Shown here: positions 2,790 to 60,536 of the stretch, one piece after another
How positions within the stretch are numbered: the stretch's first letter is position 1
Layout: every line of letters begins with the position of its first letter
Virus record (IMG/VR): IMGVR_UViG_3300025875_000002
Coordinates: 1 to 64,000 of that record
From: a virus
Taxonomy: Duplodnaviria; Heunggongvirae; Uroviricota; Caudoviricetes
DNA: 64,000 bases
Direction: 5' to 3' (one strand)
The notes under the pieces: model-generated
What the model saw: only the letters and a program-made list of their open reading frames with translations
Told to the model about the DNA's origin: nothing
Database searches by the model: none
Program-made: the position numbers and the translations under genes

Positions 2790-3239
2790 ATGAAAACGTG
2801 TTCAAGATGTAAAGTAGAAAAAACAATAGACTCGTTTGGACCGTATAAGGCAGCCAAAGACGGTCTACACGTTTGGTGTCGTCCTTGCTCTAACGCTTAT
2901 CATAAGGAATACAAAGAACGCAACGTAGAGAAAGTTAATGAGTGGAGAAGAAAGACGCATCTAAAGGGAAGATATGGCATAGATCAGGCTCAATTTGATA
3001 AGATGCTATCTGATCAAAATAATAGTTGTGCCATTTGTTTTACTCGCGTTACAGAAAGCTCACGAACAGTTAATTTTTACATTGACCATGACCACGCTTG
3101 TTGTCCTGGCCATAAGAGTTGCGGAAAGTGTATAAGAGGATTGCTATGTAATTCTTGCAATACTACTCTTGGTTTTGTTAAAGATAGCGTCGAGACGCTA
3201 GAGGCTATGATAAGCTACTTAAGAAGAGGAGTCAAATGA
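2790..3239 (+). CDS. HNH endonuclease, Endonuclease VII-like family
   Basis: DHDHACCPGHKSCGKCIRGLLCNSCN signature; paralogous to 7488, 13474, 26817, 60123(-). Confidence 0.8.
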   Translation: MKTCSRCKVEKTIDSFGPYKAAKDGLHVWCRPCSNAYHKEYKERNVEKVNEWRRKTHLKGRYGIDQAQFDKMLSDQNNSCAICFTRVTESSRTVNFYIDHDHACCPGHKSCGKCIRGLLCNSCNTTLGFVKDSVETLEAMISYLRRGVK

Positions 3240-3787
3240 AGATTGGATTTACGGGGGCACACGGAACTGGAAAGACCATGACAGCCCAGGCACTAAAGGC
3301 CACAGGCAAGTTCGATGATTTCTATTTCCCTCCATCGTCAGCACGGTTGCTTTTCGGTGACGGCATCAACACATCTGCCACACCGCTTAGTCAGATTCTG
3401 ATTACAATGGACCGGACCAATAACATCGCTGGTCATCAGAATGTAATAACAGATAGAACAGCAATTGATTCATGGGCCTATACAGAGTATCAAATGATTA
3501 CAGTGTGGAGTCCAGACGAAGTCCCTACTGGATATGCTGCGATTACAAATCAGTACGTTGACCGGGCCATGAATGACATCGATTTGTTGGTTTATTTTCC
3601 TCCATTTTGGCTTCCAAAAGATGATGGAATAAGACTTACTGATCGAAATTATCAGCGTAACATTGATGATTTGATAAAAAAGGGCATCAACATGTTTTAT
3701 GCTGGCAGTGTGCTGCACATGAAAAATGAGTCTGTGCAAAGGCGAGTCGAGGCTATTATGTCAGAAATTAAATTCTTGGGCGAGTAA
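3236..3787 (+). CDS. P-loop NTPase, NadR ribosylnicotinamide-kinase-like (AAA_28-type)
   Basis: Walker A GAHGTGKT at N-terminus; length and layout like stand-alone NadR-kinase-domain proteins. Confidence 0.45.
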   Translation: MKIGFTGAHGTGKTMTAQALKATGKFDDFYFPPSSARLLFGDGINTSATPLSQILITMDRTNNIAGHQNVITDRTAIDSWAYTEYQMITVWSPDEVPTGYAAITNQYVDRAMNDIDLLVYFPPFWLPKDDGIRLTDRNYQRNIDDLIKKGINMFYAGSVLHMKNESVQRRVEAIMSEIKFLGE

Positions 3788-3825
3788 GATTTGACATAAG
3801 TCATAGTCAGTTATACAATAACAGT

Positions 3826-4365
3826 ATGACAAAAGAATTAGCTCTGCCTGAGCGTTATGATGAGATGCATCGAGTGATAACTCTGCATCTAGAAGGCCGT
3901 AATGCCTCATGGATAGCTAAGAATCTCAATATGAAGCGTGTCGATGTCTTGAATTATATTCAAGAGTTCAAAGAAATCGCCAAAAGCGATGATCTGCTTA
4001 AGGCGCGTGCGCAAGAGGTAGTTCACGAATTCGACCAGCAGCACAATCGAATCATCGCTAGTCTTTGGGAAGTACACGACGAGGCCGAACAGGCAACAGA
4101 TGGCTTGAAGATTCGTGCAACAGCACTAAAGTCACTTTCAGATATCTCCGCTAAGCGTGTGGAAGTATTGCAAAAGTCAGGACTTCTTTCTGATGCCGCT
4201 CTTGGCGATGAAATGGCAGAGCTAGAAGATCGTCAAGAGAAACTCATTGCTATTTTACGTGAGGTTACGGCTGATTGTAACCATTGCAAGTTTGAAGTGG
4301 CTCGCCGCCTGTCAGACGTTGACGGCAAGGTCGTTCCAGTAAGAGTGGAGGCCGAGCGTGAGTAG
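3826..4365 (+). CDS. putative terminase small subunit / DNA-binding protein
   Basis: Immediately upstream of and overlapping terminase large subunit; HTH-like N-terminal region; coiled-coil C-terminus. Confidence 0.35.
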   Translation: MTKELALPERYDEMHRVITLHLEGRNASWIAKNLNMKRVDVLNYIQEFKEIAKSDDLLKARAQEVVHEFDQQHNRIIASLWEVHDEAEQATDGLKIRATALKSLSDISAKRVEVLQKSGLLSDAALGDEMAELEDRQEKLIAILREVTADCNHCKFEVARRLSDVDGKVVPVRVEAERE

Positions 4366-6432: not shown

Positions 6433-6933
6433 ATGACTTGTAACGATGCTAAATGTGATAGCCCTGCCGAAAGGCGGGGCTATTGCCTTAAGCACTACAT
6501 GCATTTTTACAGGTACGGTGCAAATTACGCTGATGTGCCTGCTTGCCGTGACTGTGGCAACCCTACAGGAAGTGATAAAAGGGTAAAGCGGTACTGTGAT
6601 GATTGTGCTATAATTAGAATTAGACAGGATCGGATCAGGGCAAACAACCGTCGCCGGTCACGGTCAGGCAAGGGTGATCACTACACGATCCAGATTCTTC
6701 TTGACTTGGACGGTCAGACGTGCTATCTTTGTGGCACAACGTTGACGGAGAGCCCGTCGATAGATCATGTAATTGCTCTGTCTCTCGGTGGGACAGATAC
6801 AGTAGACAATGTAGCACTTACCCATTGGGAGTGCAATAATCGAAAGAAGGCTAAGAATTTAGATGATACACGCTTAGAGTTTCCACACATGGCAATTCCT
6901 AGCAGAATTAGGGGTGAATTAAGATGCGAATGA
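6433..6933 (+). CDS. HNH endonuclease
   Basis: N-terminal zinc-ribbon cysteines; DHVIALSLGGTDTVDNVALTHWECNNRK HNH core. Confidence 0.75.
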   Translation: MTCNDAKCDSPAERRGYCLKHYMHFYRYGANYADVPACRDCGNPTGSDKRVKRYCDDCAIIRIRQDRIRANNRRRSRSGKGDHYTIQILLDLDGQTCYLCGTTLTESPSIDHVIALSLGGTDTVDNVALTHWECNNRKKAKNLDDTRLEFPHMAIPSRIRGELRCE

Positions 6934-7448
6934 CAATGGATATGACGAAGGCTGAGATTTTTGCCTTCCTAGCGGAACGAGACGGTTACAGGTGCACCTT
7001 CCCAGGTTGCGTCCGTCCTCTTGGTGACCCTAACGACATTGACACACTTGACCACATTTACCCTCAGTTTCTTGCTAAGCAGGCGGGTTGGACTAGGGCT
7101 GAAATTGATGCCTTGGACAACCTACAGATTCAGCACAAGCGGTGTAACGCTATCAAGGGTCACCAGCTTCCGGACGAAAACGGTAACTTCATTGTTCCCG
7201 TTCGTGAGCCTAAGCCCGTGCGTGGTCCGCGTCCTGAGATTTGTGACACGTGTTACAACGGTCGAATCTTGTTCATCGGTGAAGTTTGTCCAGACTGTGA
7301 GTCTGGACCGCAGCCTGCTGCTGCGCCCTCTGCATACAAGAAGACTCCTAAGGAGTGCAGCCACAGCGGTTTCGATCACTGCTGGATGTGCTACCTTGGT
7401 TTTGTTGAGCGTGGCTCTGCCTTGCAGAATTTGATTACTGGCACCTAG
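6924..7448 (+). CDS. HNH endonuclease
   Basis: LDHIYPQF...LQIQHKRCNAIKG HNH core; C-terminal CxxC pairs. Confidence 0.65.
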   Translation: MRMTMDMTKAEIFAFLAERDGYRCTFPGCVRPLGDPNDIDTLDHIYPQFLAKQAGWTRAEIDALDNLQIQHKRCNAIKGHQLPDENGNFIVPVREPKPVRGPRPEICDTCYNGRILFIGEVCPDCESGPQPAAAPSAYKKTPKECSHSGFDHCWMCYLGFVERGSALQNLITGT

Positions 7449-7487: not shown

Positions 7488-8105
7488 ATGGCAAATAAAA
7501 ATTGGTCAGAGGACGGCAGGGTGTGTAGGGATTGTAAGGTGTTTCAATCATTAGATCACTTTAATATTCGAAAGAATGGTATTCCTTACACGCTCTGCCG
7601 TCCTTGCCAGACGGCAGACAATAAGAAGAGAGCCGCCCGGAGAACTGTGTTGTCTCCAGACAGCATTAGAGTTTGTAGTGAATGTTTCTTGGAGAAAAGC
7701 ATTTTGGAGTTTCCAAAGAACAAAAATAGCGCTGGTGGGTATTTAAATCTTTGCAAGCCCTGTAATGCTAAGAAAAACTCGATTGCTAAGTGGGGTGTAG
7801 ATGTTACACAATATAGTTATTGTGTGATTTGCAAGGAAACGCTTGTTCCTGGTAGGGGAACCGTAGTTGATCACGACCATAACTGTTGCCCGGGACAAAA
7901 GTCTTGTGGAAGCTGTGTTCGTGGTGTACTGTGTAATCGTTGCAATGTTGGGCTAGGCATGTTTAAAGATAGCCCAGCCTTGCTCATTCAGGCTGCAACA
8001 TATGTATCCGAAACTTTGGGCAGTCGCATAGGATTACGCAGTGGTAAAGATGGTGGCCCCATTTTTCCATACAGGGCCAACTGGAACCTTGACAGCGAGG
8101 ACTAG
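7488..8105 (+). CDS. HNH endonuclease, Endonuclease VII-like with N-terminal Zn-ribbon repeats
   Basis: DHDHNCCPGQKSCGSCVRGVLCNRCNVGLG signature. Confidence 0.8.
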   Translation: MANKNWSEDGRVCRDCKVFQSLDHFNIRKNGIPYTLCRPCQTADNKKRAARRTVLSPDSIRVCSECFLEKSILEFPKNKNSAGGYLNLCKPCNAKKNSIAKWGVDVTQYSYCVICKETLVPGRGTVVDHDHNCCPGQKSCGSCVRGVLCNRCNVGLGMFKDSPALLIQAATYVSETLGSRIGLRSGKDGGPIFPYRANWNLDSED

Positions 8106-8153: not shown

Positions 8154-8600
8154 ATGACGACGACCATTGACAACTTTACTGGTCAATACGACTTTCTTTC
8201 TAATTTCTATGCCCGTCCCTTTGAGTGGGAAGGCGAGACTTGGAGAACGTCGGAGCACGCTTTCAACGCAGCGAAAACATTACTACCCGGAGAACGCATT
8301 TGGGTGCGTGATGCAAAGACGCCCGGTGAAGCGAAGCGTCGTGGTCGTGTAGTTACATTGCGTAATGATTGGGATAAGCACTGGCGGTACGTGCTGATGT
8401 ATGATATCGTTCGTACCAAGTTCAGTGATCCTGTCATGCAGGATATGCTTGCGTCAACTCACGATTCCATCCTTGTCGAAGGTAATACTTGGCATGATGG
8501 TTTATGGGGAGTTTGTCGCTGTGCGACCTGCCCGCCCGGCAGGAATTGTTTGGGCATTTTGCTTATGCAAATTCGTTTTGACATAGTAAGAGGCATATAG
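8154..8600 (+). CDS. NADAR (YbiA/DUF1768) family protein
   Basis: Hallmark motifs FLSNFY, WRTSEHAFNAAK, LGILLMQIR match YbiA-like NADAR domain. Confidence 0.75.
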   Translation: MTTTIDNFTGQYDFLSNFYARPFEWEGETWRTSEHAFNAAKTLLPGERIWVRDAKTPGEAKRRGRVVTLRNDWDKHWRYVLMYDIVRTKFSDPVMQDMLASTHDSILVEGNTWHDGLWGVCRCATCPPGRNCLGILLMQIRFDIVRGI

Positions 8601-8704: not shown

Positions 8705-8778
8705 TGCAGGCGTAGCTTAGTGGCCTAAAGCTCCCCTCTCTAAAAGGGGGATCGTGAGTTCGACTCTCACCGCCCGCA
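8705..8778 (+). tRNA. tRNA with anticodon CUA (amber-reading suppressor-type); amino acid identity undetermined
   Basis: Clean cloverleaf: acceptor GCAGGCG, D GCTT/AAGC, anticodon stem CCCCT/AGGGG, loop CTCTAAA (U33, A37), T arm GTGAG-TTCGACT-CTCAC, short variable arm. Confidence 0.5.
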
Positions 8779-8779
8779 C

Positions 8780-9874: not shown

Positions 9875-10291
9875 ATGAAAACATGTTCGATGTGTAAGTT
9901 AGAAAAGCCCTTCGATGCATTCGCTAAGGCAACAGGAACAAAAGATTTGTTGCAGCGTGGATGCAAAGATTGTAAGGCAGCGCAGTACAAGGCCAATAGT
10001 GGTAAGTATAAGGCGGGATCGAAAGAGGCAAGGGCGCGCAGGGCTGCTAAGCTAGCAGAACTAAAGTCTGCGCCTTGCACTGACTGCGGTGTTCAATATC
10101 CTTCGTATGTGATGCAATATGATCATATTGGTTTGGACAAGACAGCCCATGTATCATACTTAATGTCAAGAGTTTCTTGGTCTGTAATCTTGGAAGAGAT
10201 TGCAAAGTGTGAGCTTGTGTGTGCGAATTGTCATGCTGAAAGATCACATCAAAGAGCAAAAGATTTAATCGGGAACGAGGAAGATGGTTAA
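9875..10291 (+). CDS. HNH endonuclease (family with 19706..20008 and frameshifted 28775..29282)
   Basis: CTDCGVQYPSYVMQYDHIG...AKCELVCANCH motif; N-terminal Cys pairs. Confidence 0.7.
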   Translation: MKTCSMCKLEKPFDAFAKATGTKDLLQRGCKDCKAAQYKANSGKYKAGSKEARARRAAKLAELKSAPCTDCGVQYPSYVMQYDHIGLDKTAHVSYLMSRVSWSVILEEIAKCELVCANCHAERSHQRAKDLIGNEEDG

Positions 10292-10420
10292 TCCGTCTGA
10301 TTTGGGATCAGAAAAAACGGGGTTCGACTCCCCGGTTCCCGACGCTGGGTAGTCTAGGTTCGAATCCTAGCGCGTCGTAGAATCTAGGAGGTTGCAAACT
10401 TCTAGGGGAAGATAGATGGT
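10292..10420 (+). other. tRNA-like fragments (anticodon-arm + T-arm piece; acceptor/T-arm minihelix CGACGC...GCGTCG)
   Basis: GGGGTTCGACTCCCC and TAGGTTCGAATCCTA T-arm motifs without full cloverleaf directly after HNH stop. Confidence 0.3.
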
Positions 10421-10971: not shown

Positions 10972-11035
10972 CTTGCTCGACGAATGGTGATAGAATATAG
11001 TTAGTTGCGGGGCAGGCGAAATCCTGCCCCCTCAT

Positions 11036-11107
11036 GGGCGCGTAGTTCAGCGGTAGAACAATCGGTTTACACCCGATACGTCGTGGGTTCGATCCCCACC
11101 GTCGCCT
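11036..11107 (+). tRNA. tRNA-Val(UAC), acceptor stem imperfect
   Basis: D arm TAGTTCAGCGGTAGAACA, anticodon stem ATCGG/CCGAT loop TTTACAC, T arm GTGGG-TTCGATC-CCCAC; two acceptor mismatches; preceded by hairpin GGGGCAGG...CCTGCCCC. Confidence 0.4.
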
Positions 11108-11109
11108 AC

Positions 11110-11205
11110 GCACGGTTGAAGAACGGTTCGAATCCGTCTCGTAGTGTAATGGTAGCACGCAGCCTTAAGGTAAGTGCAGGTTCGAATCCTGTCCGGTCCA
11201 CTTTG
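11110..11205 (+). other. degenerate tRNA-like element(s)
   Basis: Two T-arm motifs (ACGG-TTCGAAT-CCGT; GCAGG-TTCGAAT-CCTGT) and a D-arm-like GTAGTGTAATGGTAGCAC but no complete cloverleaf; loop CTTAAGG would give anticodon UAA if real. Confidence 0.25.
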
Positions 11206-11237
11206 GGCCGGTAGTCTAATTGGTAGGACAACCGTAT

Positions 11238-11310
11238 GGGAGAGCAGCACGCTGGTAGGTGCAAGTGGCTTATATCCTCTCGACAGTGGGTTCGATTCCC
11301 ACCTCTCCTA
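11238..11310 (+). tRNA. tRNA-Ile(UAU)-like
   Basis: Acceptor GGGAGAG/CTCTCCT, D GCAC/GTGC, anticodon loop CTTATAT, T arm GTGGG-TTCGATT-CCCAC; preceded by an orphan 5 prime tRNA-half-like segment (GGGCCGGTAGTCTAATTGGTAGGAC). Confidence 0.45.
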
Positions 11311-13473: not shown

Positions 13474-13920
13474 TTGGAGGCGTTCAGTGCGAACGCCTCC
13501 AAGGCAATTGGTCGTAATGGCGAGTGCAAGTCATGCAAATCAGAGTATGACAAGTCCTACCGTACTAAGAACCCCGAAAGGGTGCGAGAGCAGAGAAAGC
13601 AGTTCCGTAAAGACAATTCTGATCGGCTAAAGGAAAAGCATAAGCGATGGTATGCTGACAATAAGGTGTTAGTCAGGCGACGAGTCAAAGAAAAGACATA
13701 CGGCATACCTTGGTCAGAGGTCGAGTTAATGCTTGACAACCAAGATGGTTGCTGTGCAATTTGTGGCGATGAATTTGGAGACAATGTTCCTCAGATTGAT
13801 CACTGTCATGTGACTGGTAAGGTTCGTGGCCTTTTGTGCCGATCCTGTAACACATCTTTGGGCGGCTTTAAGGACGACGTAAATAACTTGCATGCAGCTA
13901 TAGCATACTTGGAGGATTAG
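13474..13920 (+). CDS. HNH endonuclease, Endonuclease VII-like
   Basis: DHCHVTGKVRGLLCRSCNTSLG signature, CAICG. Confidence 0.8.
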   Translation: MEAFSANASKAIGRNGECKSCKSEYDKSYRTKNPERVREQRKQFRKDNSDRLKEKHKRWYADNKVLVRRRVKEKTYGIPWSEVELMLDNQDGCCAICGDEFGDNVPQIDHCHVTGKVRGLLCRSCNTSLGGFKDDVNNLHAAIAYLED

Positions 13921-47297: not shown

Positions 47298-47378
47298 GAT
47301 CGCATTTTACATCATGATGTGGAATGAGCTTAAGAAGCTCCTTCGTAAGCACTGATTACTAGAGAAAAGAGAACTAAC

Positions 47379-47579
47379 ATGCTTAAGCTTGACTATGATG
47401 CAGCCCATCGATTTGTTGATGGGTATGATGGTGCTCGTTGGGACGGATGGGACGTGCTGCTTTTTAAGCCCACCCCGGCCGGGGCAACCCACCGCAGGGG
47501 CGCATATGTTAACGGCCAGTGGGGCATTCAGACTCGTGTTGTTGCCGATAGTGAAGGAAAGTGGCGTTTGAAGGTATGA
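47379..47579 (+). CDS. hypothetical protein
   Basis: ORF track. Confidence 0.3.
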   Translation: MLKLDYDAAHRFVDGYDGARWDGWDVLLFKPTPAGATHRRGAYVNGQWGIQTRVVADSEGKWRLKV

Positions 47580-47896
47580 CGACTAATCCCAGCTTGCTTG
47601 ATGAATTGGGATTAGACGAGTCAACTCTTTCTTGGTATCAACTTTCTTCTTGTCGTGGTATGGACCTTAATCTCTTTTATGAGCTTTATGAAGAAAATGA
47701 AGAGATAGCAAAGGCAATTGATGAGCGGTGCCTAAGCTGCCCGGTGTTTAAAGAGTGTCTAATGACTGCCACTGACGATAAAGACTATGGTGTTCGTGGA
47801 GCAATTTATCTATCCAATGGTAAGCCAGACAAGCAGCGTAACGCTCATAAGACACCGGAAGTTTGGTCACGAATTCAAGAAAGATTAAGTGAATGA
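47576..47896 (+). CDS. whiB: WhiB-family transcriptional regulator (Fe-S)
   Basis: Cys pattern C-x(n)-CLSCPVFKEC (C-x2-C-x5-C) plus GVRGAIY (G[VI]WGG-like); start at overlapping ATGA. Confidence 0.6.
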   Translation: MTTNPSLLDELGLDESTLSWYQLSSCRGMDLNLFYELYEENEEIAKAIDERCLSCPVFKECLMTATDDKDYGVRGAIYLSNGKPDKQRNAHKTPEVWSRIQERLSE

Positions 47897-48165
47897 TTCC
47901 ACTCAGCCATCCTATTAGAACAATGTTCCAAAGAAATCCACCACCGCCCCGGCCGGTCATGTTAGATTTAGTTTATCATGATGCAGACGAGACGAATGAT
48001 CTCCCTGAGTTTTGGACATTACGCATGTACCGAGACAATCTACGTAAGCTCAATTATAATGCAGAAGACACAATGTCTATTCATAGATGGGTTAATGATA
48101 TAATCAAGAACCTAAGGATGATTGATGAGCACGTATATCTTGAAATCCTTGAAAAGGAGGTTTGA
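47893..48165 (+). CDS. hypothetical protein
   Basis: ORF track. Confidence 0.3.
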   Translation: MIPLSHPIRTMFQRNPPPPRPVMLDLVYHDADETNDLPEFWTLRMYRDNLRKLNYNAEDTMSIHRWVNDIIKNLRMIDEHVYLEILEKEV

Positions 48166-48344
48166 TGAATACAACAGTGTGGATAAAGGATGAGAACGTT
48201 GAGGGAGTTATCTTAACGGAGATGCTACACGGAGCTATCATTGCTTATGACCTGGGCGGGTTTCATCATGAAGTTTTGATGGACAAGGACGACTATATCG
48301 TAAAGGACGAAATATTCTTTGAATTTGAGGAGATTGATGAGTAG
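48162..48344 (+). CDS. hypothetical protein
   Basis: ORF track. Confidence 0.25.
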   Translation: MMNTTVWIKDENVEGVILTEMLHGAIIAYDLGGFHHEVLMDKDDYIVKDEIFFEFEEIDE

Positions 48345-48597
48345 ACCAATTACACAAGGCGTTTCTTGTGAGGTCTGTAACATGCAGCGAGCACCTGGGG
48401 AAATTCATTCCCGAGAATCTCGTTTGTTAAAGGGCACAAGGTTGTTGATCTGTAACAAGTGCGACGTAGCAAAAAAGGAGCCACGTGGCTTTATTATTAT
48501 TGTTGCACAAACCCGTGGCGCCGATGCAGTAGCAGATTATATCAAAAATGAACGTTACGTTGGCAAGCCAATCACCGCTAAGGAAATAACAAAGTAA
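48319..48597 (+). CDS. hypothetical Zn-finger protein
   Basis: CEVCN...CNKCD. Confidence 0.3.
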   Translation: MNLRRLMSRPITQGVSCEVCNMQRAPGEIHSRESRLLKGTRLLICNKCDVAKKEPRGFIIIVAQTRGADAVADYIKNERYVGKPITAKEITK

Positions 48598-48635
48598 CTT
48601 TTGTGTTTTAGCCATAGTGCTGTTATACTGGCGAT

Positions 48636-49046
48636 ATGATACGAATGGGTAAACTACTGTGGCTTGCACGTCATCCGGTGGAGACAACTATATTTATAGT
48701 CTCCCTCGGATTGTTCGTATTCGCTTGTTATATGGTCAGTCCTTGGTATGCCACCAGCTACACTTCTCCTTTGACTGTTAATTTCTCTGAGCGAATTCAA
48801 GAGTATTGTGTTGGCACAATGTTCATCTTTTCTTCACTTCCTGGCCTCATTGCTCCTCTTATAAAAGACGACAACAGGATACGTGCTTTAAAACTTGGTA
48901 GTTTTATGCTATTTCTTTCTTGGTTGTTCCTTTTCATCCTTAGGGTTTTTACTGTCGGTTGGACACCGTGGCACTGGATGCCAATGTTAATCATTTCACT
49001 TCTCATGGGTGTCAATAGGTTATTCTTAGAGGTTAAATCAGAATAA
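48636..49046 (+). CDS. membrane protein (4 TM)
   Basis: ORF track; hydrophobic segments. Confidence 0.4.
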   Translation: MIRMGKLLWLARHPVETTIFIVSLGLFVFACYMVSPWYATSYTSPLTVNFSERIQEYCVGTMFIFSSLPGLIAPLIKDDNRIRALKLGSFMLFLSWLFLFILRVFTVGWTPWHWMPMLIISLLMGVNRLFLEVKSE

Positions 49047-49345
49047 TGGATACTGCGTGGATCGCTCTCATCGGAACTGTATTTGGCGGCGCCGGACTAA
49101 AGATGATTGAAAGCGTTCTTTCTCGTGGACAATCAAAGTCAGACGCAGCCACAGCCATGAGAGAAGAACTACGTAAGGAATCAACCTCACTTAGAGAAGA
49201 AATGCGGGTTGTTGAAAAGGATTTGGACGCTTGGAAGGAAAAATATTTTCTTCTATTGCAAGACTACTTAGAGTTAAAGAGTCAATTCGTTCACAAAGAG
49301 CCAGTAGTAGAAGAAACTAAGAATGATGAGGGGAATAATTGGTAA
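49046..49345 (+). CDS. membrane/coiled-coil protein
   Basis: N-terminal TM, charged coiled-coil remainder. Confidence 0.35.
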   Translation: MDTAWIALIGTVFGGAGLKMIESVLSRGQSKSDAATAMREELRKESTSLREEMRVVEKDLDAWKEKYFLLLQDYLELKSQFVHKEPVVEETKNDEGNNW

Positions 49346-49563
49346 TGCTAGTAATTAAGTTAGACCTAGAAAAGAACAAGATGAATTATAATGCTGCGCT
49401 TGCGGCCTTGTCTGATTTTGATGTTGCAAGCGCAGCGTGGGAAACGGACGAGCCAAAGGTAGCCCCACCGGCAGCGAAGTCAGGTCAGACCGGCAGCGAT
49501 CTAAGCTCCGGACTTTCTGCTGCTATTAAGTTTCTTGCAGATAGTCAAAAGAATAAGCAGTGA
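49339..49563 (+). CDS. hypothetical protein
   Basis: ORF track. Confidence 0.3.
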   Translation: MVMLVIKLDLEKNKMNYNAALAALSDFDVASAAWETDEPKVAPPAAKSGQTGSDLSSGLSAAIKFLADSQKNKQ

Positions 49564-49790
49564 ATTTAGCGAAGGATCTTGCTGAAATCTTCAAAGGGCG
49601 AGAGCTTCATTGGAGTATTGATGGTAAGATGGTAATACCAACCGCAAAAGATATTCAAGAGACTCTTGACAAGGCGAAGGAAGCCTTGTACACTGAACCA
49701 GTACCCAGCCAGATGGAAGTCGGACGCTTGATCGTTCGCCACTGGAAACAAAATCAATTTGATGTCTACCTACAGATAGGAAATCTATAA
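49560..49790 (+). CDS. hypothetical protein
   Basis: ORF track. Confidence 0.3.
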   Translation: MNLAKDLAEIFKGRELHWSIDGKMVIPTAKDIQETLDKAKEALYTEPVPSQMEVGRLIVRHWKQNQFDVYLQIGNL

Positions 49791-50344
49791 TGTCACTCTT
49801 TGAGTACACTCATCACAAGGAAACCCCGGACTCTAGCGTCATCAGTGACCTGTATTATAATGCAAATACTGAGGAGCTTGTTGTTGTCCTTCACGGCGGC
49901 ACTAACGCCGGTTACGATGGAGTGTCACTGATCGTTTACCTTGCCATGATCACTCACTACGACGCCCGCGAGGAGGGTGGATCTGTTGGTGCCTATTGGA
50001 ACACTGGCGTTAAGCCTCTTTTTGATGGCTTTGACACCTCTTGGATTGAGGGTTTTGTTGATGCCAATGGTGAGGACGAGGGTCCTAGCGATTGGGAGCA
50101 GGAAGTCCTTAATGCTCAGGCCCCTGTGAACCTCGACAGCGTTGCTATCAACCAGACGATTGTCATTCCCACCGCCGAGTACAGTATCGGCTTTGCGTTT
50201 GAGACTGCTAGCACTACGTATGAGATTGATCTTCCTGTCTTTGCGGTTGATCCTGACGATGCGCTGAGCCGCTTTAATCGTATTGCTGGCCTGGCCGGTT
50301 ATGAGAAGGTCAAAGTTAAGTCCGTCACTCGCTTTTTTGAGTGA
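49790..50344 (+). CDS. hypothetical protein
   Basis: ORF track; followed by strong terminator. Confidence 0.4.
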   Translation: MSLFEYTHHKETPDSSVISDLYYNANTEELVVVLHGGTNAGYDGVSLIVYLAMITHYDAREEGGSVGAYWNTGVKPLFDGFDTSWIEGFVDANGEDEGPSDWEQEVLNAQAPVNLDSVAINQTIVIPTAEYSIGFAFETASTTYEIDLPVFAVDPDDALSRFNRIAGLAGYEKVKVKSVTRFFE

Positions 50345-50346
50345 TT

Positions 50347-50383
50347 CGTAACCGGCCCTGGTTAGCCGCCAGGGCCGGTTACG
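50347..50383 (+). terminator. strong hairpin terminator (15-bp perfect stem)
   Basis: CGTAACCGGCCCTGGttagccgCCAGGGCCGGTTACG. Confidence 0.55.
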
Positions 50384-50535
50384 TAAGGAACAGCTTATGA
50401 ATGACTATATTATAGTCTGGTGCCCGTCCAATCCAGGTGGTAAGGTAGAAATTCCTAACCGCTGGTGGAGTCGTCGGCGTAAGTTTGCGACCCTAGGCCA
50501 GAGTATCCGCTACTCAAAGAGAAAGAAGTGGGAAT

Positions 50536-50787
50536 ATGACAATTGCTGACGACGTCTTTGGTGTATTGTCCAAGACTTATTCAAGGTATTATGGTGAAGA
50601 TTCGGTAAGGAAGCTTAGCAGATTGATTGCTGATCAGATTCAGATGGGTAAGATTACCTCTCACCAAGCCTTGCAGAATTACATCTGGATGTGGTACAGT
50701 GGTGGCTCCACCGCAAAAGCGGTCAGCTACGAATTCATAGAGAAGTTCCCCAATTACATTAGGAGTAACGATGACGACTCAGATTGA
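50536..50787 (+). CDS. hypothetical protein
   Basis: ORF track. Confidence 0.3.
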   Translation: MTIADDVFGVLSKTYSRYYGEDSVRKLSRLIADQIQMGKITSHQALQNYIWMWYSGGSTAKAVSYEFIEKFPNYIRSNDDDSD

Positions 50788-51214
50788 CGAGTATATTGTT
50801 CCCGAAGAGTTTGTGACCATGAAGCCTGAGGTTAAGGCTGAGTGGGTTGCTGACCTGCGCAGTGGTAATTTCAGTCAGACTCGCGGTGTGCTTTGTAACC
50901 CCATTAAGGGTGGTCACTGCTGCCTTGGCGTGCTTTCTGAGCAGGCCGTTCGTAAGGGCGTTGCCACTAAGGAGGATGACGTTACCGATGGTGTGTCTGG
51001 ATTTAGGATTGAGGCCAATGGTGATCTTGCTCTGACTCAGCTTAGCACTGGCCTTGCTGAGTGGGCCGGTATAATTCCTGCCTACGGTAGTCGTACTACT
51101 CAGAGCATCCTGCCTTTCTTTGACCGCGAAGTGCGGCGCGTTTACCTCGACAACCTGAATGATGACGGCATGCCGTTTTCGCAGATTGCCGATCTGATCG
51201 ATTTTTGGTACTGA
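50771..51214 (+). CDS. hypothetical protein (paralog of 32410..32814)
   Basis: WVADLRSGNFSQTRGVL...GGHCCLGVL. Confidence 0.35.
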   Translation: MTTQIDEYIVPEEFVTMKPEVKAEWVADLRSGNFSQTRGVLCNPIKGGHCCLGVLSEQAVRKGVATKEDDVTDGVSGFRIEANGDLALTQLSTGLAEWAGIIPAYGSRTTQSILPFFDREVRRVYLDNLNDDGMPFSQIADLIDFWY

Positions 51215-51234
51215 CCAACAAATAAGGAGACAAA

Positions 51235-51627
51235 ATGAATAAGATTAAGAAGGCTGCCGTTAGCATGGGAGCAATCGCTGCACTTATCACCGGAGGGGTT
51301 GCTGCCGACACTGCAAATGCTCCCGATGCGAGCGCAGCAGTCGCTCAGGTTTGTCACAGGGGACCATCGACTAATGCTCCCGTTGCAGTTCTAGAGTCTG
51401 GTGGGGCATCCTACCTTGTCTACCCCGGCCACTGTACCTCAGTAAATGTACCCATTTTTGGTTTCCGTCCCTCTCGTTCAGGAGATACTGTTACTTGGGC
51501 TTACGACAGTAGCTACTTTACCAACTACACCGCTGTTTATAAGAGCGGGCAGTGGACTGCTACTCTTAACAAGAGCATTGTGATTAAGAATGTTCATAGT
51601 GGATTTGGTGGTGGAGGCTCTTTCTGA
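51235..51627 (+). CDS. secreted protein of unknown function
   Basis: Signal peptide MNKIKKAAVSMGAIAALITGGVAADTANA; RBS AAGGAGA. Confidence 0.4.
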   Translation: MNKIKKAAVSMGAIAALITGGVAADTANAPDASAAVAQVCHRGPSTNAPVAVLESGGASYLVYPGHCTSVNVPIFGFRPSRSGDTVTWAYDSSYFTNYTAVYKSGQWTATLNKSIVIKNVHSGFGGGGSF

Positions 51628-51807
51628 GCTTGACACAACCGGGCCGGTAGAGTAAGCTCTAGTCAACAGACAAGGGACAGCATGAATGAAAAGAAGCCAC
51701 GAAAGAAGAAGGACAAGCCTAAGGGTGAGGTTCGTAATCTTCTAAAGATCAATGGCACTTTACAGCTTCAAAGTTGACTTTAATTTGAAGCCAGATACAA
51801 TTGGTCT

Positions 51808-52257
51808 ATGAAAATTTGCAGCAGGTGTAAAGTAAGTAAGTCTTTAGAAGAATTCTCTAAAAATAAGACAAAGAAAGACGGCAAGAATACTTTTTGCAAG
51901 CCATGCCATAAAGAGTACGTTGGCGAACACTATCAAAAAAACAAACAAGTATACTTGGATCGTACTGCTCAATATTCTAAGGATAACGCGGACAAAATAA
52001 AACAATACAAGCTTGATTGTCGGTCTGAATATACAGACCTTGAAAATAAACGTCGTGCTAGAAAGAAAAATCAGCTTGGAAAACCATACTCTAGACAGAA
52101 AATTTTTGATAGAGACGAGTGGATGTGCTATCTTTGCGGAGAATCAATCAATCCGGACCTTAAACGCCCGGATATGATGAGCGCATCCATTGATCACGTT
52201 AAGCCTATATCTAAGGGCGGACTTGATTGTGAGAGCAATGTCCGTGCAAGCATCTAA
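51808..52257 (+). CDS. HNH endonuclease
   Basis: N-terminal CxxC pairs; SIDHVKPISKGGLDCESNV HNH core. Confidence 0.6.
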   Translation: MKICSRCKVSKSLEEFSKNKTKKDGKNTFCKPCHKEYVGEHYQKNKQVYLDRTAQYSKDNADKIKQYKLDCRSEYTDLENKRRARKKNQLGKPYSRQKIFDRDEWMCYLCGESINPDLKRPDMMSASIDHVKPISKGGLDCESNVRASI

Positions 52258-52275
52258 TATGTAATGTGAGGAAAA

Positions 52276-52494
52276 ATGCCACATACACCGAAGAGGACCC
52301 CACCTGGTAAGCCAAAGAAAGAAAAGGCTAAAGGTGAGTATAGAAACTTAATGATCGTAAATGGTATCTACACATTTGAAGTCAAGCGTAAGGACAACAC
52401 ATGGACTGCACTCGGAGGGCTATCCGGTGAAACTTCTAAGGCTGATGCAGAAAAGTTTGCGCAGAACACTGCCGAGTCATGGAGGAAGCGGTGA
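52276..52494 (+). CDS. hypothetical protein
   Basis: ORF track. Confidence 0.3.
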   Translation: MPHTPKRTPPGKPKKEKAKGEYRNLMIVNGIYTFEVKRKDNTWTALGGLSGETSKADAEKFAQNTAESWRKR

Positions 52495-53347: not shown

Positions 53348-54127
53348 ATGAAGTATGAGAAGAATCTAAAGAATAACATCCTAGAGGGCGTGGTGATCGG
53401 TGTTGTTTTTACCGGTCTGTCCTATCTCCTTGGCGTTTCTTTCGGATGGATTGACAGCGTTAACTGGCTAGAAGCCTTCGCTGTCTTCACCTCCTACGTG
53501 TGCACGTGGCTGTGTGTTCGTGAGCGTCGGTGGAACTATCCCATCGGTGCACTGTCTACCGCAGCCTACGCTGTAGTTTTTTGGCAGATGGACCTGTATG
53601 CTAGTGCTGCACTTAATGCCTACCTTGTGCCTACGCTGCTTTACGGCTGGTACAGGTGGCGCGATGATGACAACACTCGTCCGATCACGCGGGTTGCGGC
53701 CAAGTGGATTCCTGTCTACCTCGCTGTGACCGCTGCAACTTATGGCGCTGTGCTCTTGATTATAAACGCCTTCGATGCTAAGCTTGCTCTGACAGACAGC
53801 GTGATCCTGGTCGGGTCGATCCTGGCTCAGTTCCTGCTGGACAACAAGAAATTGTCCACTTGGAGCGTTTGGGCTGTGGTCAATGTCCTCGCCATTTATA
53901 CCTATTTCAACGCAGACTTGACCCTCGCTGGCTTCCAATACATTACCTTTTTACTCAACACCGGCGTTGGATATATTGTTTGGAAGAATTCAATGAATAG
54001 GAATAATGATGACCCGAGCCTTTACATTAATGACATGTCTACCCCCAACCCTGGGGCACCTACGATTAATTCAATTCAGCCAGCAGCTAGCACCGACGAC
54101 GGTGATCGTAAGCACGCAGCCGTCTGA
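53348..54127 (+). CDS. pnuC: nicotinamide riboside transporter PnuC
   Basis: Multi-TM; QMDLYASAALNAYLVPTLLYGWYRWRDD closely matches PnuC signature region (LYAS...GWY.W). Confidence 0.8.
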   Translation: MKYEKNLKNNILEGVVIGVVFTGLSYLLGVSFGWIDSVNWLEAFAVFTSYVCTWLCVRERRWNYPIGALSTAAYAVVFWQMDLYASAALNAYLVPTLLYGWYRWRDDDNTRPITRVAAKWIPVYLAVTAATYGAVLLIINAFDAKLALTDSVILVGSILAQFLLDNKKLSTWSVWAVVNVLAIYTYFNADLTLAGFQYITFLLNTGVGYIVWKNSMNRNNDDPSLYINDMSTPNPGAPTINSIQPAASTDDGDRKHAAV

Positions 54128-55034
54128 GCCTTTTCCGATGGAGCGCTACAAGGCAATCAAGGAGGCCATTTCTGGTCAGGGAGTCATGGCAATGCTATAC
54201 AACAGAGAGATTGAGCAGAACCCCGAAGCCCCTGGATTCTGGCAGACATGGCGAGATATCTTTTATCAGTATGGTTTCTCAGAGGGTGACTACATCGTAG
54301 CCAGTGAGCCTTACGGACAGCGTTTGGCAGAAGAGCTTGGTGGTGTGTTTATGCCTTATGACCTTAACCGGTCCATTGACCCAATTAAGGCCACACCGGT
54401 TCGTAATGATCCCCTGACGCTCTGGCGTTGGAGGGATATGGTTCCTGAGTTTCGTAAGTACGTGATGCAGCGAGTTACCATTTTCGGTGCTGAGTCTTGC
54501 GGAAAGACTACTCTCAGTCAGGACTTGGCCGTTGAGTATAACTCTCGGTGGCTGTTTGAGTGGGCACGGCCTTACCTAGAGGCTGTCGGTGCTGAGGTTA
54601 CCGACGAAAAGATGTATGCAATTCACAAGGGTCAGCTTGCTTTGCAGCAGCATGGCCGGTGGAATGTGACAGACGCGCCGGTTCTGTTTCAGGATACAGA
54701 CCTGTTTAGCACTGTTGGTTACTGGAATCTCTGGAAGCCAGAGCACAACATCAATGAACTTATCCTTGATGCGGCTGACAATAAGTCCCAGCTTTACCTG
54801 ATTGCACCCTCTAATATTCCGTTTGAGGCTGATCCTCTCCGGTACGGTGGGCATGAGCGGGAGTCGGCAGACCAGTTTTGGATCGACCTGTGCAAGTCTT
54901 ATGGACTTAACTACAGAGTCTTGACTTCCAGCGACCGGGTTGGTAGAGTGAAGGAAGCGGGCAAGTATATCCATGAGTTGCTGGACGACAACATTGTCCA
55001 GCCGTTGCACTACGAGAGGACGTTCAATGGTTGA
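54006..55034 (+). CDS. nadR: bifunctional NMN adenylyltransferase / ribosylnicotinamide kinase NadR
   Basis: NMNAT motif FTLMTCLPPTLGHLRLIQ (GxFxPxHxGH-like); RWRDMVPEFRKYVMQRVTIFGAESCGKTTL matches NadR RNK-domain Walker A region; 3 prime of pnuC overlaps by ~120 nt. Confidence 0.85.
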   Translation: MMTRAFTLMTCLPPTLGHLRLIQFSQQLAPTTVIVSTQPSEPFPMERYKAIKEAISGQGVMAMLYNREIEQNPEAPGFWQTWRDIFYQYGFSEGDYIVASEPYGQRLAEELGGVFMPYDLNRSIDPIKATPVRNDPLTLWRWRDMVPEFRKYVMQRVTIFGAESCGKTTLSQDLAVEYNSRWLFEWARPYLEAVGAEVTDEKMYAIHKGQLALQQHGRWNVTDAPVLFQDTDLFSTVGYWNLWKPEHNINELILDAADNKSQLYLIAPSNIPFEADPLRYGGHERESADQFWIDLCKSYGLNYRVLTSSDRVGRVKEAGKYIHELLDDNIVQPLHYERTFNG

Positions 55035-59225: not shown

Positions 59226-59737
59226 GAATCGTAAAGCCCAGCCGGGGTGGTTGGACCCGGTTCAGTAAGTCAGCAATTGAGTCTGGCGATGGTGTATGGT
59301 ACTCCTTTATGGGTACAATTGCTACTGCGGGTAGTATTCCCGGTGCAATTCTGCCTTCCATCGTAACCGGCAATCCTGGGTTCATGCTTATTGCTGTGCC
59401 TGCTGCTTTGTTCCTCAGTACAGTTTTCGGTTACGTTTCCGGTACTGAGAAGGTTGACGGCGGTCGTGCAAAGCTGTACGTTGAGGCCAACAGGCTGCTG
59501 CCTAAGATTACTGGCGTGCTAGAGCGTCCAATTGCTGAGAGGCTGGTCGAAAACATTTGGCTGCACACTCTTGACAATCACTACTCTAACTGCGAGACTT
59601 GTACCGAGCGTGTTACCATGCTTAAGGAGCTTGCACCTAATCAGATTAAGAACAGAGAAGATATTGAAGAGGCTAAGCTAATGCTGGAAACCCGGCGTGA
59701 GGTTGCGTCGTGGTCGGAGAGGAAGCAAATTGGATAG
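59222..59737 (+). CDS. membrane protein
   Basis: Hydrophobic segments; overlapping starts with neighbours (operon). Confidence 0.4.
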   Translation: MRIVKPSRGGWTRFSKSAIESGDGVWYSFMGTIATAGSIPGAILPSIVTGNPGFMLIAVPAALFLSTVFGYVSGTEKVDGGRAKLYVEANRLLPKITGVLERPIAERLVENIWLHTLDNHYSNCETCTERVTMLKELAPNQIKNREDIEEAKLMLETRREVASWSERKQIG

Positions 59738-59936
59738 GATATGTGCTTTCTGCGGGGCAGAATGTAGCCCTGCAATTGGAGTGTCCCAGGAGCTTATGAC
59801 TAAGTTTTGGGGTGGAAAGACCGGTTTTAAGATTCAGTATACGGGCAGGCAGGACCTATTCTTCTGTAATGACCGGCACCGGTCTGCTGCCCTTTATCCA
59901 AAGCCAGAGATTACGGAGAGTGACGATGAAGATTGA
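59697..59936 (+). CDS. hypothetical Cys-containing protein
   Basis: CAFCGAEC...CNDRH. Confidence 0.3.
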   Translation: MRLRRGRRGSKLDRICAFCGAECSPAIGVSQELMTKFWGGKTGFKIQYTGRQDLFFCNDRHRSAALYPKPEITESDDED

Positions 59937-60122
59937 GGTCGTAATTGAGGAAGGCTCTGCTGGTGTTTGGCATTGGTTCCTTAAGCCTGACTTTAGTTAC
60001 GCTGAATTTGCTAGCCCGATAGCAGGGTGGGCAACTGATCCTGGCGAGGCGGGTAATACTGCCATGAATGCTTTAGTCCGGTTGAATTACTGGTACTGGC
60101 AAACCCAGCAGGGTGAGCTTTT

Positions 60123-60536
60123 CTAATTTCGGTTTAGGTAATCAATAGCCTTTCGTAATGTCTCTATGTTGTCCTTCGCCATTCCAAGCATGATGTTGCA
60201 GCTATTGCATAGCAACCCACGAACATCGCCGGTCGTATGGCAGTGATCCACATATAGTGAGTCACCCCTTACGGGTGCAGGAACTTCTTTACAAATAGCG
60301 CAAAGTCCTTGCTGCTTTACTATCATGGAGTTATAGTCTTCCATGCTTATACCATATTTGCTAAGGAAGTGTGAACCCTTTTTGTATGGGTAATGCTTAC
60401 GACGGCAAGCACTACACTTGTAGTCATAGCCAGAAGTTGCTGCCTTGTTGACAGGGAAGTTTTCTACTGGTAGCATTTCACGACACATCTTGCATAGCTT
60501 CTTTCCATCAATGATGGGATACTTTTCGTTTGGCAT
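60123..60536 (-). CDS. HNH endonuclease, Endonuclease VII-like (only clear minus-strand gene)
   Basis: CAICKEV...DHCHTTGDVRGLLCNSCNIMLG signature. Confidence 0.8.
   Translation of the reverse strand: MPNEKYPIIDGKKLCKMCREMLPVENFPVNKAATSGYDYKCSACRRKHYPYKKGSHFLSKYGISMEDYNSMIVKQQGLCAICKEVPAPVRGDSLYVDHCHTTGDVRGLLCNSCNIMLGMAKDNIETLRKAIDYLNRN

Follow-up and report, generated by a model that had tools for sequence, protein, structure and literature searches.

Why should one stretch of phage DNA carry some eighteen nuclease genes, many of them pressed against transfer RNA (tRNA) genes, and do the nucleases and the tRNAs travel together? These questions are raised by positions 1 to 64,000 of the IMG/VR virus record IMGVR_UViG_3300025875_000002, a 64-kb stretch that we call the window and that sits in a 133,313-bp metagenomic contig (ENA ERZ27293403 k141_2035252). 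The window has 47.5% G+C and nearly all of its genes on the plus strand and, judged from protein similarity and gene order, it is part of an actinophage genome, assembled from a metagenome, that is a distant relative of the Streptomyces BE-cluster phages. In our reading, free-standing homing endonuclease genes of the His-Me-finger type have very probably invaded the spacers of its tRNA array and other intergenic sites, and we hold with similar confidence that the colonisers comprise HNH families A to D, an HNH_3 type and Endonuclease VII/Hpy99I-like enzymes. The evidence that carries this reading is comparative: between conserved flanks, 15 of the 18 nuclease genes are absent from at least one relative, while 6924 and 19706 (genes are named by their first coordinate) are conserved and 60123 lies outside the comparison. 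The original prediction, made from the sequence alone, had held that the HNH genes are mobile and expanded, and this is borne out; with 15 of 18 polymorphic, the identical HNH content that would speak against mobility is not what the relatives show.

About 18 HNH genes in 64 kb had been predicted, and all 18 open reading frames (ORFs) are found within a few bases of the predicted positions; nearly all coordinates hold, with 39311 corrected to 39310 and the gene listed as 34622 more likely starting at the ATG at 34652. By the Pfam families HNH, HNH_3, HNH_5 and Endonuclease_7, or by PHROGs, every one encodes a His-Me-finger nuclease (5 Endonuclease_7 and 13 HNH); together they cover 8.3 kb, or ~13% of the window, and all lie in intergenic positions or between tRNAs, none in an intron or intein. 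Pfam Endonuclease_7 (PF02945; gathering threshold 23.6 bits) matches all five ORFs concerned at 41–90 bits, Pfam HNH or HNH_3 exceeds its cut-off for 6433, 33640/33733, 34622 and 39241 and falls slightly under it for 21014, 32997, 46606 and 43182, and PHROGs places all remaining ORFs in ‘HNH endonuclease’ or ‘endonuclease VII’ families at E values between 1e-16 and 1e-50. Scanned with Pfam, 129 ORFs gave HNH seven times, Endonuclease_7 five times and HNH_3 three times; among the top 25 of the 56 matched families listed, there was neither an HNH beyond the 18 nor a GIY-YIG, the catalytic domain of SegB, and a weak single-member GIY-YIG or LAGLIDADG could sit outside these 25. Catalytic motifs are intact in 16 of the 18, and the Endonuclease VII-like copies keep both the catalytic DH...N and the zinc-binding Cys motifs; degeneration in the window consists of two copies, 28775 and 51808, that are frameshifted inside the HNH motif.

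All-against-all BLASTP sorts the genes into an Endonuclease VII-like group (2790, 7488, 13474, 26817 and 60123), family A (21014, 32997 and 46606), family B (9875, 19706 and 28775), family C (6433, 33733 and 51808), family D (34622 and 39310) and the singletons 6924 and 43182. This largely agrees with the paralogous families first proposed, except that 6924 is no close paralogue of 6433. An N-terminal CxxC...CxxC module is common to 2790, 7488, 9875, 28775, 33733 and 51808; the zinc-ribbon module ‘MKxCxxCxxxKxxxxF...C..C’ is found on Endonuclease VII, HNH-B and HNH-C cores, with two copies in 7488, and its occurrence on three different nuclease cores indicates modular shuffling of a DNA-binding domain. 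PHROGs weakly ties this module to ‘Lar-like restriction alleviation’ families.

Megablast of 20 kb of the window against 50,697 phage records gave no match, and protein-level searches were therefore used. IMG/VR scans with the large terminase (TerL) and rIIB recovered no relatives, and a metagenome scan with the Band-7 protein, which gave three loci with a best identity of 53%, was set aside. Three relatives were recovered via TerL, Band-7 and rIIA homologs: R1 (JGI 3300055090 and 3300055095; contigs L020, L021, L026 and L028), with TerL 85% and rIIA 84% identical to the window; R2 (L030 and L031), from the same sample as the window, with rIIA 56% and Band-7 59% identical; and R3 (L036), a 136.5-kb JGI contig with rIIA 55.5% identical. 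The rIIA-like protein of the window is 38% identical to that of the Streptomyces BE-cluster phages (~133 kb), and the window is syntenic with positions 66–115 kb of one of them, Larnav (PQ114750). Both share the order Cas4-like nuclease, RuvC-like resolvase, small and large terminase, HNH, then the tRNA array with a Band-7 gene and a transfer-messenger RNA (tmRNA), then rIIA/rIIB and WhiB; within the corresponding 49 kb, Larnav has 2 annotated HNH genes. Presence or absence at syntenic sites was scored gene by gene with tblastn and tRNA scans in R1–R3 and the BE-cluster phages.

R1 is without nine of the genes (2790, 6433, 7488, 13474, 21014, 26817, 43182, 46606 and 51808), R2 is without 21014, 26817, 39310, 43182 and 51808 and has different nucleases at the 13474 and 46606 sites, and R3 has no HNH gene at all over 22 kb where the window has nine. 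Across the array, neighbouring lineages have 0, 2–3 or 12 nucleases, the 12 being those of the window at 6433–29282 and 43182–52257, the spans covered by R1 contigs, in which R1 has 2–3. Outside the tRNA array, the Endonuclease VII-like 2790 (2790–3239, plus strand like all nuclease genes except 60123; 149 residues, N-terminal CxxC zinc-ribbon, PF02945 70 bits) faces an empty site in R1 (L020/L021), where a 45-residue ORF abuts the AAA_28 gene. The family C gene 6433 (6433–6933; 166 residues, Pfam HNH 35 bits) is absent from R1 and Larnav, and at the site of the Endonuclease VII-like 7488 (7488–8105; 205 residues, 57.5 bits) R1 holds a 55-residue ORF instead. The HNH_3-type 43182 (43182–43778; 198 residues, C-terminal helix-turn-helix, phrog_1872 E = 4e-24) does stand between rIIA and rIIB, as had been claimed, and overlaps both; these two genes abut or overlap in R1 (by 11 nt), R2, R3 (3 nt apart) and Larnav. 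Larnav has a homolog of 43182 (gp222) flanked by gp221 and WhiB, and the corresponding site of the window is empty. The family C pseudogene 51808 (51808–52300), with its frameshift before the last His of the motif, is absent from R1, R2 and R3, and the sole minus-strand copy is the Endonuclease VII-like 60123 (60123–60536; 137 residues, 90 bits).

Within the array the same picture recurs. The family B gene 9875 (9875–10291; 138 residues, phrog_2255 E = 3e-28) lies between two tRNA-Pro(UGG) genes; a 53% identical ortholog is found between two tRNA-Pro in Streptomyces phage PumpkinSpice, the tRNAs are 3 nt apart in Larnav, there is no HNH at the site in R1 (L020), and at the adjacent Trp–Pro site R1 has a divergent family B HNH (L021/L026). 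A family B HNH between tRNA-Trp and tRNA-Pro is present in one and absent from the other of two R1 contigs whose TerL proteins are identical, and the mycobacteriophages Bonray and LinStu likewise differ at a Lys–Glu site, with an HNH in Bonray and tRNAs 3 nt apart in LinStu. At the site of the Endonuclease VII-like 13474 (13474–13920; 148 residues, 75 bits), between conserved 71- and 120-residue ORFs, R1 has just 3 nt between the flanking ORFs (L021 11670/11673), and R2 has a different endonuclease VII (L031 1897–2394). The family A gene 21014 (21014–21442; 142 residues, phrog_4234 E = 2e-29) is absent between tRNA-Lys(CUU) and tRNA-Lys(UUU) in R1, R2 and Larnav, and the Endonuclease VII-like 26817 (26817–27158; 113 residues, 41 bits) is absent from R1, R2 and R3. 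The family B pseudogene 28775 (28775–29282; BLASTP and PHROGs), frameshifted near 29100, has a remnant in R2 (L031 14009–14293) and is absent from R3; HNH or nuclease remnants also occur in Ronan and Jada. In R3, tRNA-Asn and tRNA-Thr(UGU), which bracket the family A gene 32997 (32997–33350; 117 residues) in the window, are 67 nt apart. Also absent from R3 are the family C gene 33733 (33733–34359; 208 residues, Pfam HNH 36 bits) and the family D gene 34652 (34652–35137), related to F-TflIV, with tRNA-Ala and tRNA-Gln 86 nt apart there. The second family D gene, 39310 (39310–39789; phrog_10822 E = 8e-50), lies between tRNA-Leu(UAG) and tRNA-Leu(UAA) and is absent from R2 and R3, and in R3 these tRNAs are 292 nt apart. 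Finally, the spacer between tRNA-Thr(GGU) and tRNA-Thr(CGU) holds the family A gene 46606 (46606–46962) in the window, a family B gene in R2 and no HNH in R1 or R3, where the two tRNAs are 50 and 77 nt apart, respectively.

The array itself (8706–47031, plus strand) has 37 tRNAs by ARAGORN, ~5 weaker Rfam tRNA-like matches and a tmRNA at 29767–30073. Eleven nuclease genes are interleaved in it, 43182 also falls within its coordinates (making 12), and six lie elsewhere. The claimed HNH–tRNA adjacencies prove accurate when the distances are measured, with the gap after 21014 being 0 nt, and 7 of the 11 interleaved genes are ≤16 nt from a tRNA. The stop of 21014 directly adjoins tRNA-Lys(UUU) at 21443; 32997 leaves a 1-nt gap to tRNA-Thr(UGU); 46606 overlaps tRNA-Thr(CGU) by 6 nt, with its stop codon inside the acceptor stem; the stop of 34622/34652 overlaps tRNA-Gln(UUG) by 5 nt; 9875 overlaps the second tRNA-Pro by 22 nt; 39310 stops 5 nt short of tRNA-Leu(UAA); and the GTG start of 33733 comes right after the 3′-end of tRNA-Ala (0 nt). 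Members of subfamilies A, B and D also stand 0–25 nt from tRNAs in unrelated phages that infect Mycobacterium, Gordonia, Vibrio, E. coli, Pseudomonas and Stenotrophomonas. By tblastn against phages, family A homologs adjoin tRNAs in 10 of the 12 contexts inspected: in mycobacteriophage LinStu between tRNA-Thr(UGU) and tRNA-Thr(GGU) with a 5-nt gap, in PegLeg with 3-nt gaps on both sides, in Gordonia phage GodonK at 0 nt upstream and with a 10-nt overlap downstream, and also in Stenotrophomonas phages Yut2 and Marzo, Serratia phage KKP_3264, Streptomyces phage Mildred21 and mycobacteriophage Lukilu, with family A remnants beside tRNAs in Ronan and Jada. Family D is tRNA-adjacent in 4 of 4 contexts, its three closest homologs (Vibrio phage D69, Felixounavirus SP22 and Pseudomonas phage phiPsa347) standing directly upstream of tRNA-Leu(UAG), and family B homologs lie between tRNAs in Myxococcus phage Mx1 and in Bonray. 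Several of these between-tRNA HNH ORFs are unannotated in GenBank (Yut2, L009 1201–1554; Mx1, L012 1201–1626; KKP_3264, L015 801–1049; phiPsa347, L034 701–1126), probably because they overlap tRNA features.

Such adjacency could arise if HNH genes simply pile up in the array as a permissive, gene-poor and recombination-prone region, without any specificity for tRNA sequence, and we regard this as possible, though not the probable explanation. It would account for different nucleases occupying the same spacer (families A and B between the two tRNA-Thr, and different Endonuclease VII types at the 13474 site), for the other accessory genes and small ORFs that vary in the array, and for the lack of an obvious common sequence among the tRNAs flanking homologs. 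But stop codons that overlap a tRNA 5′-end or lie ≤10 nt from it are found in 6/12 array HNH ORFs as against 4/60 other array ORFs (Fisher p = 9e-4), subfamilies A and D are pressed on tRNAs in phages of several bacterial phyla, and 3 of 3 close family D homologs precede the same isoacceptor, tRNA-Leu(UAG). Moreover, SegB shows that a tRNA structural motif can be the recognition element (PMC2330249).

Whether nucleases and tRNAs move together is best judged against R1, where two whole blocks have been replaced. At the Thr locus blastn homology stops at 46505 and resumes at 47026, so the whole of 46506–47025 (plus strand), that is tRNA-Thr(GGU), HNH 46606–46962 and tRNA-Thr(CGU), is foreign relative to R1; at the Lys locus R1 matches the window up to 20894, where tRNA-Lys(CUU) has its 3′-end, and again, at 94.5% identity, from 21515, exactly at the 3′-end of tRNA-Lys(UUU), and the replaced block (20895–21514, plus strand) holds the spacer, HNH 21014 and tRNA-Lys(UUU). 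The tRNA alleles in these blocks are outliers: tRNA-Thr(GGU) has an identity of 0.99 between R1 and R3 and 0.81 between R1 and R2, compared with 0.61–0.64 between the window and its relatives, and for tRNA-Lys(UUU) the identity is 0.89 between R1 and R2, compared with 0.65 for window and R1 and 0.57 for window and R2. Overall, window–R1 tRNA pairs beside window-specific HNHs have a mean identity of 0.64, and the others 0.80 (one-sided Mann–Whitney p = 0.006). The predicted joint movement of HNH and tRNA is indirectly supported at the Thr and Lys blocks, which were replaced whole, and is not seen at the Asn–Thr(UGU) and Ala–Gln sites, where the downstream tRNAs are not replaced relative to R3. 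Block replacement at these two loci fits a SegB-like co-conversion of variable length rather than obligate cassettes, to judge from the alignments.

A stricter version, that HNH genes and adjacent tRNAs are obligate composite cassettes which transpose or duplicate as units and so built both the families and the array, we consider rather doubtful. The breakpoints of the Thr and Lys replacements at tRNA ends, and the outlier alleles beside window-specific HNHs, are what cassettes would leave, and so is the fusion of ORF stops to the 5′-end of the downstream tRNA in the window and in homologs of other phages; family D with tRNA-Leu(UAG) and family A with tRNA-Thr (the latter in mycobacteriophage cluster C) are also recurrent pairings. 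However, every tRNA pair that brackets an HNH in the window occurs without one in some relative, the Pro–Pro, Lys–Lys, Thr–Thr, Leu–Leu and Asn–Thr pairs being 3–300 nt apart there; the tRNAs 3′ of 32997 and 34652 are not replaced relative to R3; and seven nucleases (2790, 6433, 7488, 13474, 43182, 51808 and 60123) do not adjoin any tRNA. The claim that such cassettes duplicate together does not survive, since tRNAs beside paralogous HNHs resemble each other only as much as randomly paired tRNAs do: tRNA-Thr(UGU) and tRNA-Thr(CGU) have an identity of 0.60, which ranks 189 of 666 tRNA pairs, tRNAs beside homologous HNHs of other phages likewise stay at the background level, and intragenomic duplication of an HNH with its tRNA was rejected on this background identity. 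A recent transfer of an HNH with tRNA-Thr between the window and LinStu was likewise rejected, their Thr tRNAs being 53–69% identical, which is background. The candidate insertion of a family D gene with tRNA-Leu(UAA) relative to R2 was weakened by the order Leu(UAG)–Leu(UAA)–Leu(UAG), without HNH, in R3. Nor did a comparison of flanks reveal a conserved motif at the insertion sites beyond generic tRNA features.

The original prediction had further seen many tRNA fragments and taken them as scars of gene conversion, and this part does not hold. With blastn-short and Rfam at E ≤ 1, the search for truncated tRNAs gave just isolated T-arm-like 13–16-mers and low-scoring full-length matches; the Rfam search had no truncated match, and five low-scoring matches were full-length and tRNA-like. 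Fragments are few, and the single clear fossil is not beside an HNH: a decayed tRNA-Arg(ACG) at 18677–18753 (plus strand), unseen by ARAGORN and the Rfam tRNA model, whose T-arm and 3′ half are conserved relative to R1 (L026 11092–11165) and R2 (L031 5812–5885) and whose 5′ half has diverged.

Two nuclease genes do not behave as mobile elements, and may have become fixed or domesticated. The HNH gene 6924 (6924–7448; 174 residues, phrog_9645 E = 1e-46), separated from the large terminase upstream by a 76-residue ORF and HNH 6433, has orthologs at the same position in R1 (67% identity) and Larnav (gp97, 36%) and, instead of a homing gene, is probably a fixed or functional one. The short family B gene 19706 (19706–20008; 100 residues, phrog_3106 E = 1e-19), 50 nt past the tRNA-Asp pair, is 90.6% identical in R1 and 64.7% in R2. 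Sequence searches of PDB with 6924 and 43182 gave no match to a solved structure. Terminase-associated HNH proteins exist in cos and other phages (HK97 gp74 type), and 6924 alone resembles them in lying just downstream of the large terminase and in being conserved in all relatives examined; it differs in matching no solved structure.

It is unlikely, however, that most of the nucleases have been domesticated for the benefit of the phage rather than being selfish, be it for exclusion of competitors or satellites, degradation of host DNA, packaging, or resolution of recombination intermediates. The conservation of 6924 by the terminase and of 19706 (65–91% identity) and the 16 of 18 intact catalytic motifs would agree with such roles, and nucleases derived from homing endonucleases reportedly act against satellites in Vibrio phage ICP1. 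The Endonuclease VII family, moreover, includes a bona fide resolvase, T4 gp49, and the five window ORFs resemble it in matching Pfam Endonuclease_7 with catalytic and Cys motifs intact. Yet among solved structures 60123 comes closest to the restriction enzyme Hpy99I (E = 4e-9 over 125 residues), and similarity to T4 endonuclease VII (1e7d/1en7) covers the catalytic core only (residues 70–125, E = 3e-4), a weaker and shorter match than that to the sequence-specific Hpy99I. A gp49-type resolvase would be similar over its full length and present as a single conserved copy; here the match is to the core, and there are five copies. Four of these five are absent from relatives (60123 being outside the comparison) and a conserved RuvC-like resolvase is already encoded at 1944–2519, so that we read the copies as homing-type nucleases rather than resolvases. 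Against domestication in general stand the 15 genes dispensable in at least one close relative, with none in R3 over 22 kb, and the decay of two copies.

That the nuclease density is a metagenome assembly artefact (chimeric joins, or collapsed or expanded repeats) can practically be dismissed: the window is a metagenomic contig with the related R2 in the same sample, but contigs L002 and L022 from another sample (JGI 3300004213) reproduce the gene order including 2790, 6433, 7488 and 43182, synteny with the BE-cluster phages is continuous, and paralogues of ≤65% DNA identity cannot mislead an assembler.

How would invading homing genes be expressed? A TAnnnT hexamer lies 6–7 nt before the ATG in 8/17 plus-strand HNH genes compared with 7/105 other ORFs (p = 1e-4), and in most of these eight genes there is, in addition, a −35 box at 16–18 nt or an extended −10 TGn. 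The putative promoters read TTGACA-17-TATAGT-7-ATG for 26817, TTGACT-17-TATAAT-6-ATG for 39310 (from 39275), TTGACT-16-TACAAT-6-ATG for 51808, TTGATG-17-TATGAT-6-ATG for 34652, TGG-TATAAT-N6-ATG for 6433 and TGC-TATAAT-N6-ATG for 7488. The −35 box of 39310 lies 2 nt past the 3′-end of tRNA-Leu(UAG), where 97% identity to R2 stops. The same promoter and leaderless-start architecture is found in HNH genes of R1, R2, PumpkinSpice, Wipeout, Bonray and LinStu, and we infer from these motifs that the genes are self-contained promoter-plus-leaderless-ORF units. Leaderless translation is common in actinobacteria. Family A genes have a Shine–Dalgarno sequence instead, and in them the stop codon adjoins the following tRNA or falls within it, so that RNase P processing would cut at or within that codon. 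That tRNA processing limits nuclease expression was suggested earlier for SegB and the T5 enzymes (PMC2330249).

From these features the following mechanism can be proposed. Each nuclease gene would be a small autonomous unit, about half of them having their own sigma-70-like promoter 6–7 nt before the ATG and giving a leaderless messenger RNA (mRNA), and the others having a Shine–Dalgarno sequence and probably being read from tRNA operon transcripts. During co-infection with a relative that is without the gene, the nuclease would cut or nick the empty allele at or near the insertion site, and recombinational repair would copy the nuclease gene into the recipient, often with the neighbouring tRNA allele or alleles (co-conversion). 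Arrays of tRNAs may be favoured since conserved tRNA blocks would provide recognition sites and homology arms, short spacers would tolerate insertion, and RNase P and 3′ processing would split the tRNAs from the mRNA. Where a stop codon abuts or lies inside a tRNA 5′-end, the message may also be trimmed as the tRNA matures, which would hold nuclease levels down.

Several points weigh against this reading. Presence and absence could partly reflect deletion rather than gain, and genes other than nucleases vary too, among them a 349-residue lysin gene at 24420 and a GOLLD RNA. The tRNA-Thr(UGU) after 32997 and the tRNA-Gln after 34652 are 0.82–0.84 identical to those of R3, showing no co-replacement, and tRNA alleles are mosaic even away from HNHs, with tRNA-Lys(CUU) 91% identical between R2 and R3. 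Because tRNAs 3′ of homologous HNHs in different phages are only ~60% alike, a shared nucleotide target is not evident. Homing is put forward here from sequence comparison, the promoters are consensus matches, and the relatives are metagenomic contigs, R1 being several contigs assumed to represent one lineage.

Invasion by homing genes is compatible with a more specific and tentative idea, to which we would give perhaps one chance among several: that some HNH subfamilies together with the downstream tRNA form a long-lived composite mobile module of promoter, leaderless ORF and tRNA, with the stop of the ORF fused to the 5′-end of the tRNA. If so, the tRNA would be the recognition target or homology arm and at the same time the RNA-processing signal by which the nuclease message is ended and possibly also limited; subfamilies would be paired with isoacceptors across phyla (D with tRNA-Leu(UAG), A with tRNA-Thr or tRNA-Lys); and such modules would be the main engine of tRNA allele turnover in phage arrays.

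The tRNAs of the array show features of their own. Across the window and R2, from the same sample and with rIIA 56% identical, tRNA-Leu(UAG) is 97% identical (39200–39272 and L030 1344–1416), and tRNA-Thr(GGU) is 99% identical between R1 and R3 (L028 6021–6094 and L036 14727–14799) despite far more diverged proteins, which suggests that single tRNA genes are often exchanged between these lineages. The tRNA-Pro(UGG) at 10270–10343 (plus strand) has a 5′ part 85% like the first tRNA-Pro of R1 and a 3′-end that runs into homology with the second, and looks like a hybrid, as though recombination had joined two tandem tRNA genes. The array opens with a tRNA (8706–8779, plus strand) that has a CUA anticodon, that of an amber suppressor (labelled ‘Pyl’ by ARAGORN); CUA-anticodon tRNAs also occur at L022 7973–8046 and in LinStu (L004 1955–2027), and a similar suppressor is annotated in mycobacteriophage cluster C. 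The tmRNA (29767–30073, plus strand) has the tag ADYDVVAEAEAILAEASLISA, nearly identical to that of the R3 tmRNA (L036 2024–2348). Should HNH stop codons be lost through tRNA processing, the non-stop messages so produced would, speculatively, be substrates of this tmRNA. In Larnav (PQ114750), coding sequences at 80808, 86147, 104921 and 105931 start 1 nt after a tRNA 3′-end, in the manner of 33733, and tRNA 3′ processing could make leaderless mRNAs from such arrangements (tRNA punctuation).

Other elements are embedded in or near the array. A full-length GOLLD RNA (27491–27888, plus strand; Rfam RF02032, 203.5 bits with a gathering score of 150) lies just 5′ of tRNA-Met; in R3, tRNA-Arg(CCU) and tRNA-Met are 106 nt apart, so that both the GOLLD RNA and 26817 are absent there, and R1 keeps homology into the start of this region. 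The lysin-like gene (24420–25469, plus strand; 349 residues, transglycosylase plus M23 peptidase) is absent from R1 at this place and stands elsewhere in R2 (L031 7041–8069), and its displacement means that non-nuclease genes are also shuffled in the array. Sub-threshold Rfam matches to YrlA, a Y RNA-like family, occur at 10977–11240 (plus strand; 31.7 and 23.6 bits, gathering score 69), and a Ro-like protein is encoded by BE-cluster phages such as Larnav (gp125). A radical SAM protein (36033–37067) and a C5 cytosine methylase (40289–40981) are embedded in the array, the latter truncated-looking, with the first third of the Pfam model matched. Genes related to nicotinamide adenine dinucleotide (NAD) at 8154–8600, 16094–16684, 53348–54127 and 54006–55034 encode NADAR, an isochorismatase (nicotinamidase-like), a PnuC-type nicotinamide mononucleotide transporter and AAA_28 (NadR-like), and may form an NAD salvage or reconstitution module.

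The mechanism proposed for the nuclease genes is not new, since homing endonucleases in phage tRNA clusters are already established. T4 SegB, encoded in the tRNA cluster, recognises the T-psi-C motif and spreads with the flanking tRNAs, whose co-conversion was shown experimentally (PMC2330249). The window genes are like it in being free-standing nucleases between tRNAs that are absent from relatives with a homologous tRNA region, in a putative spread with flanking tRNAs at the replaced blocks, and in having ORF ends that overlap tRNA processing sites. They differ in being HNH or Endonuclease VII-like rather than GIY-YIG, in number (11 interleaved, 12 with 43182, and six elsewhere, compared with one such gene in the T4 cluster), and in that cleavage and homing by SegB are experimental findings whereas ours are drawn from sequence comparison. 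In T5, F-TflI and F-TflII, as well as F-TflIV, are, in the account given alongside SegB (PMC2330249), homing endonucleases within a tRNA cluster. The T5/BF23 enzyme F-TflIV (BF23 record AJ604530) is, like ours, an HNH in a phage tRNA cluster, with family D ~40% identical in the catalytic region, and it starts 23 nt after a tRNA; it differs in belonging to phages of another host phylum and in aligning over ~60 catalytic residues, closer family D homologs being found in Vibrio, Felixounavirus and Pseudomonas phages, and nuclease density is far higher in the window than in T5. HNH genes are the most widespread coding sequences in tRNA arrays of Mycobacterium-associated genomes, mycobacteriophages included (PMC5966550; PMC6409571), and have been implicated in the tRNA repertoire diversity of cluster M phages (Pope et al. 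2014, as cited in PMC5966550 and PMC6409571). Family A is 48–54% identical to LinStu gp169 and PegLeg gp96, which leave 3–5-nt gaps to tRNAs, and in mycobacteriophage arrays of clusters C and M, too, HNHs are polymorphic among cluster members and, according to the same citing articles, are proposed drivers of tRNA repertoire diversity; these arrays have one to three such genes each, and the window phage is of a BE-like lineage.

What is unusual here is the number, 18 nuclease genes in 64 kb compared with 0–3 in relatives over the same regions, and also the clean series of empty, occupied and differently occupied sites and the consistent promoter-leaderless architecture. A practical rule for annotation follows for many hosts: small ORFs pressed on phage tRNA genes are often HNH genes that went unannotated. 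The view is gaining ground that phage tRNA arrays are tools of counter-defence and codon adaptation, and how their repertoires change is poorly understood. The window and its co-occurring relatives form a natural comparison series with clean empty sites, and because donor and recipient sequences are defined, homing-driven turnover of tRNA alleles becomes directly testable.

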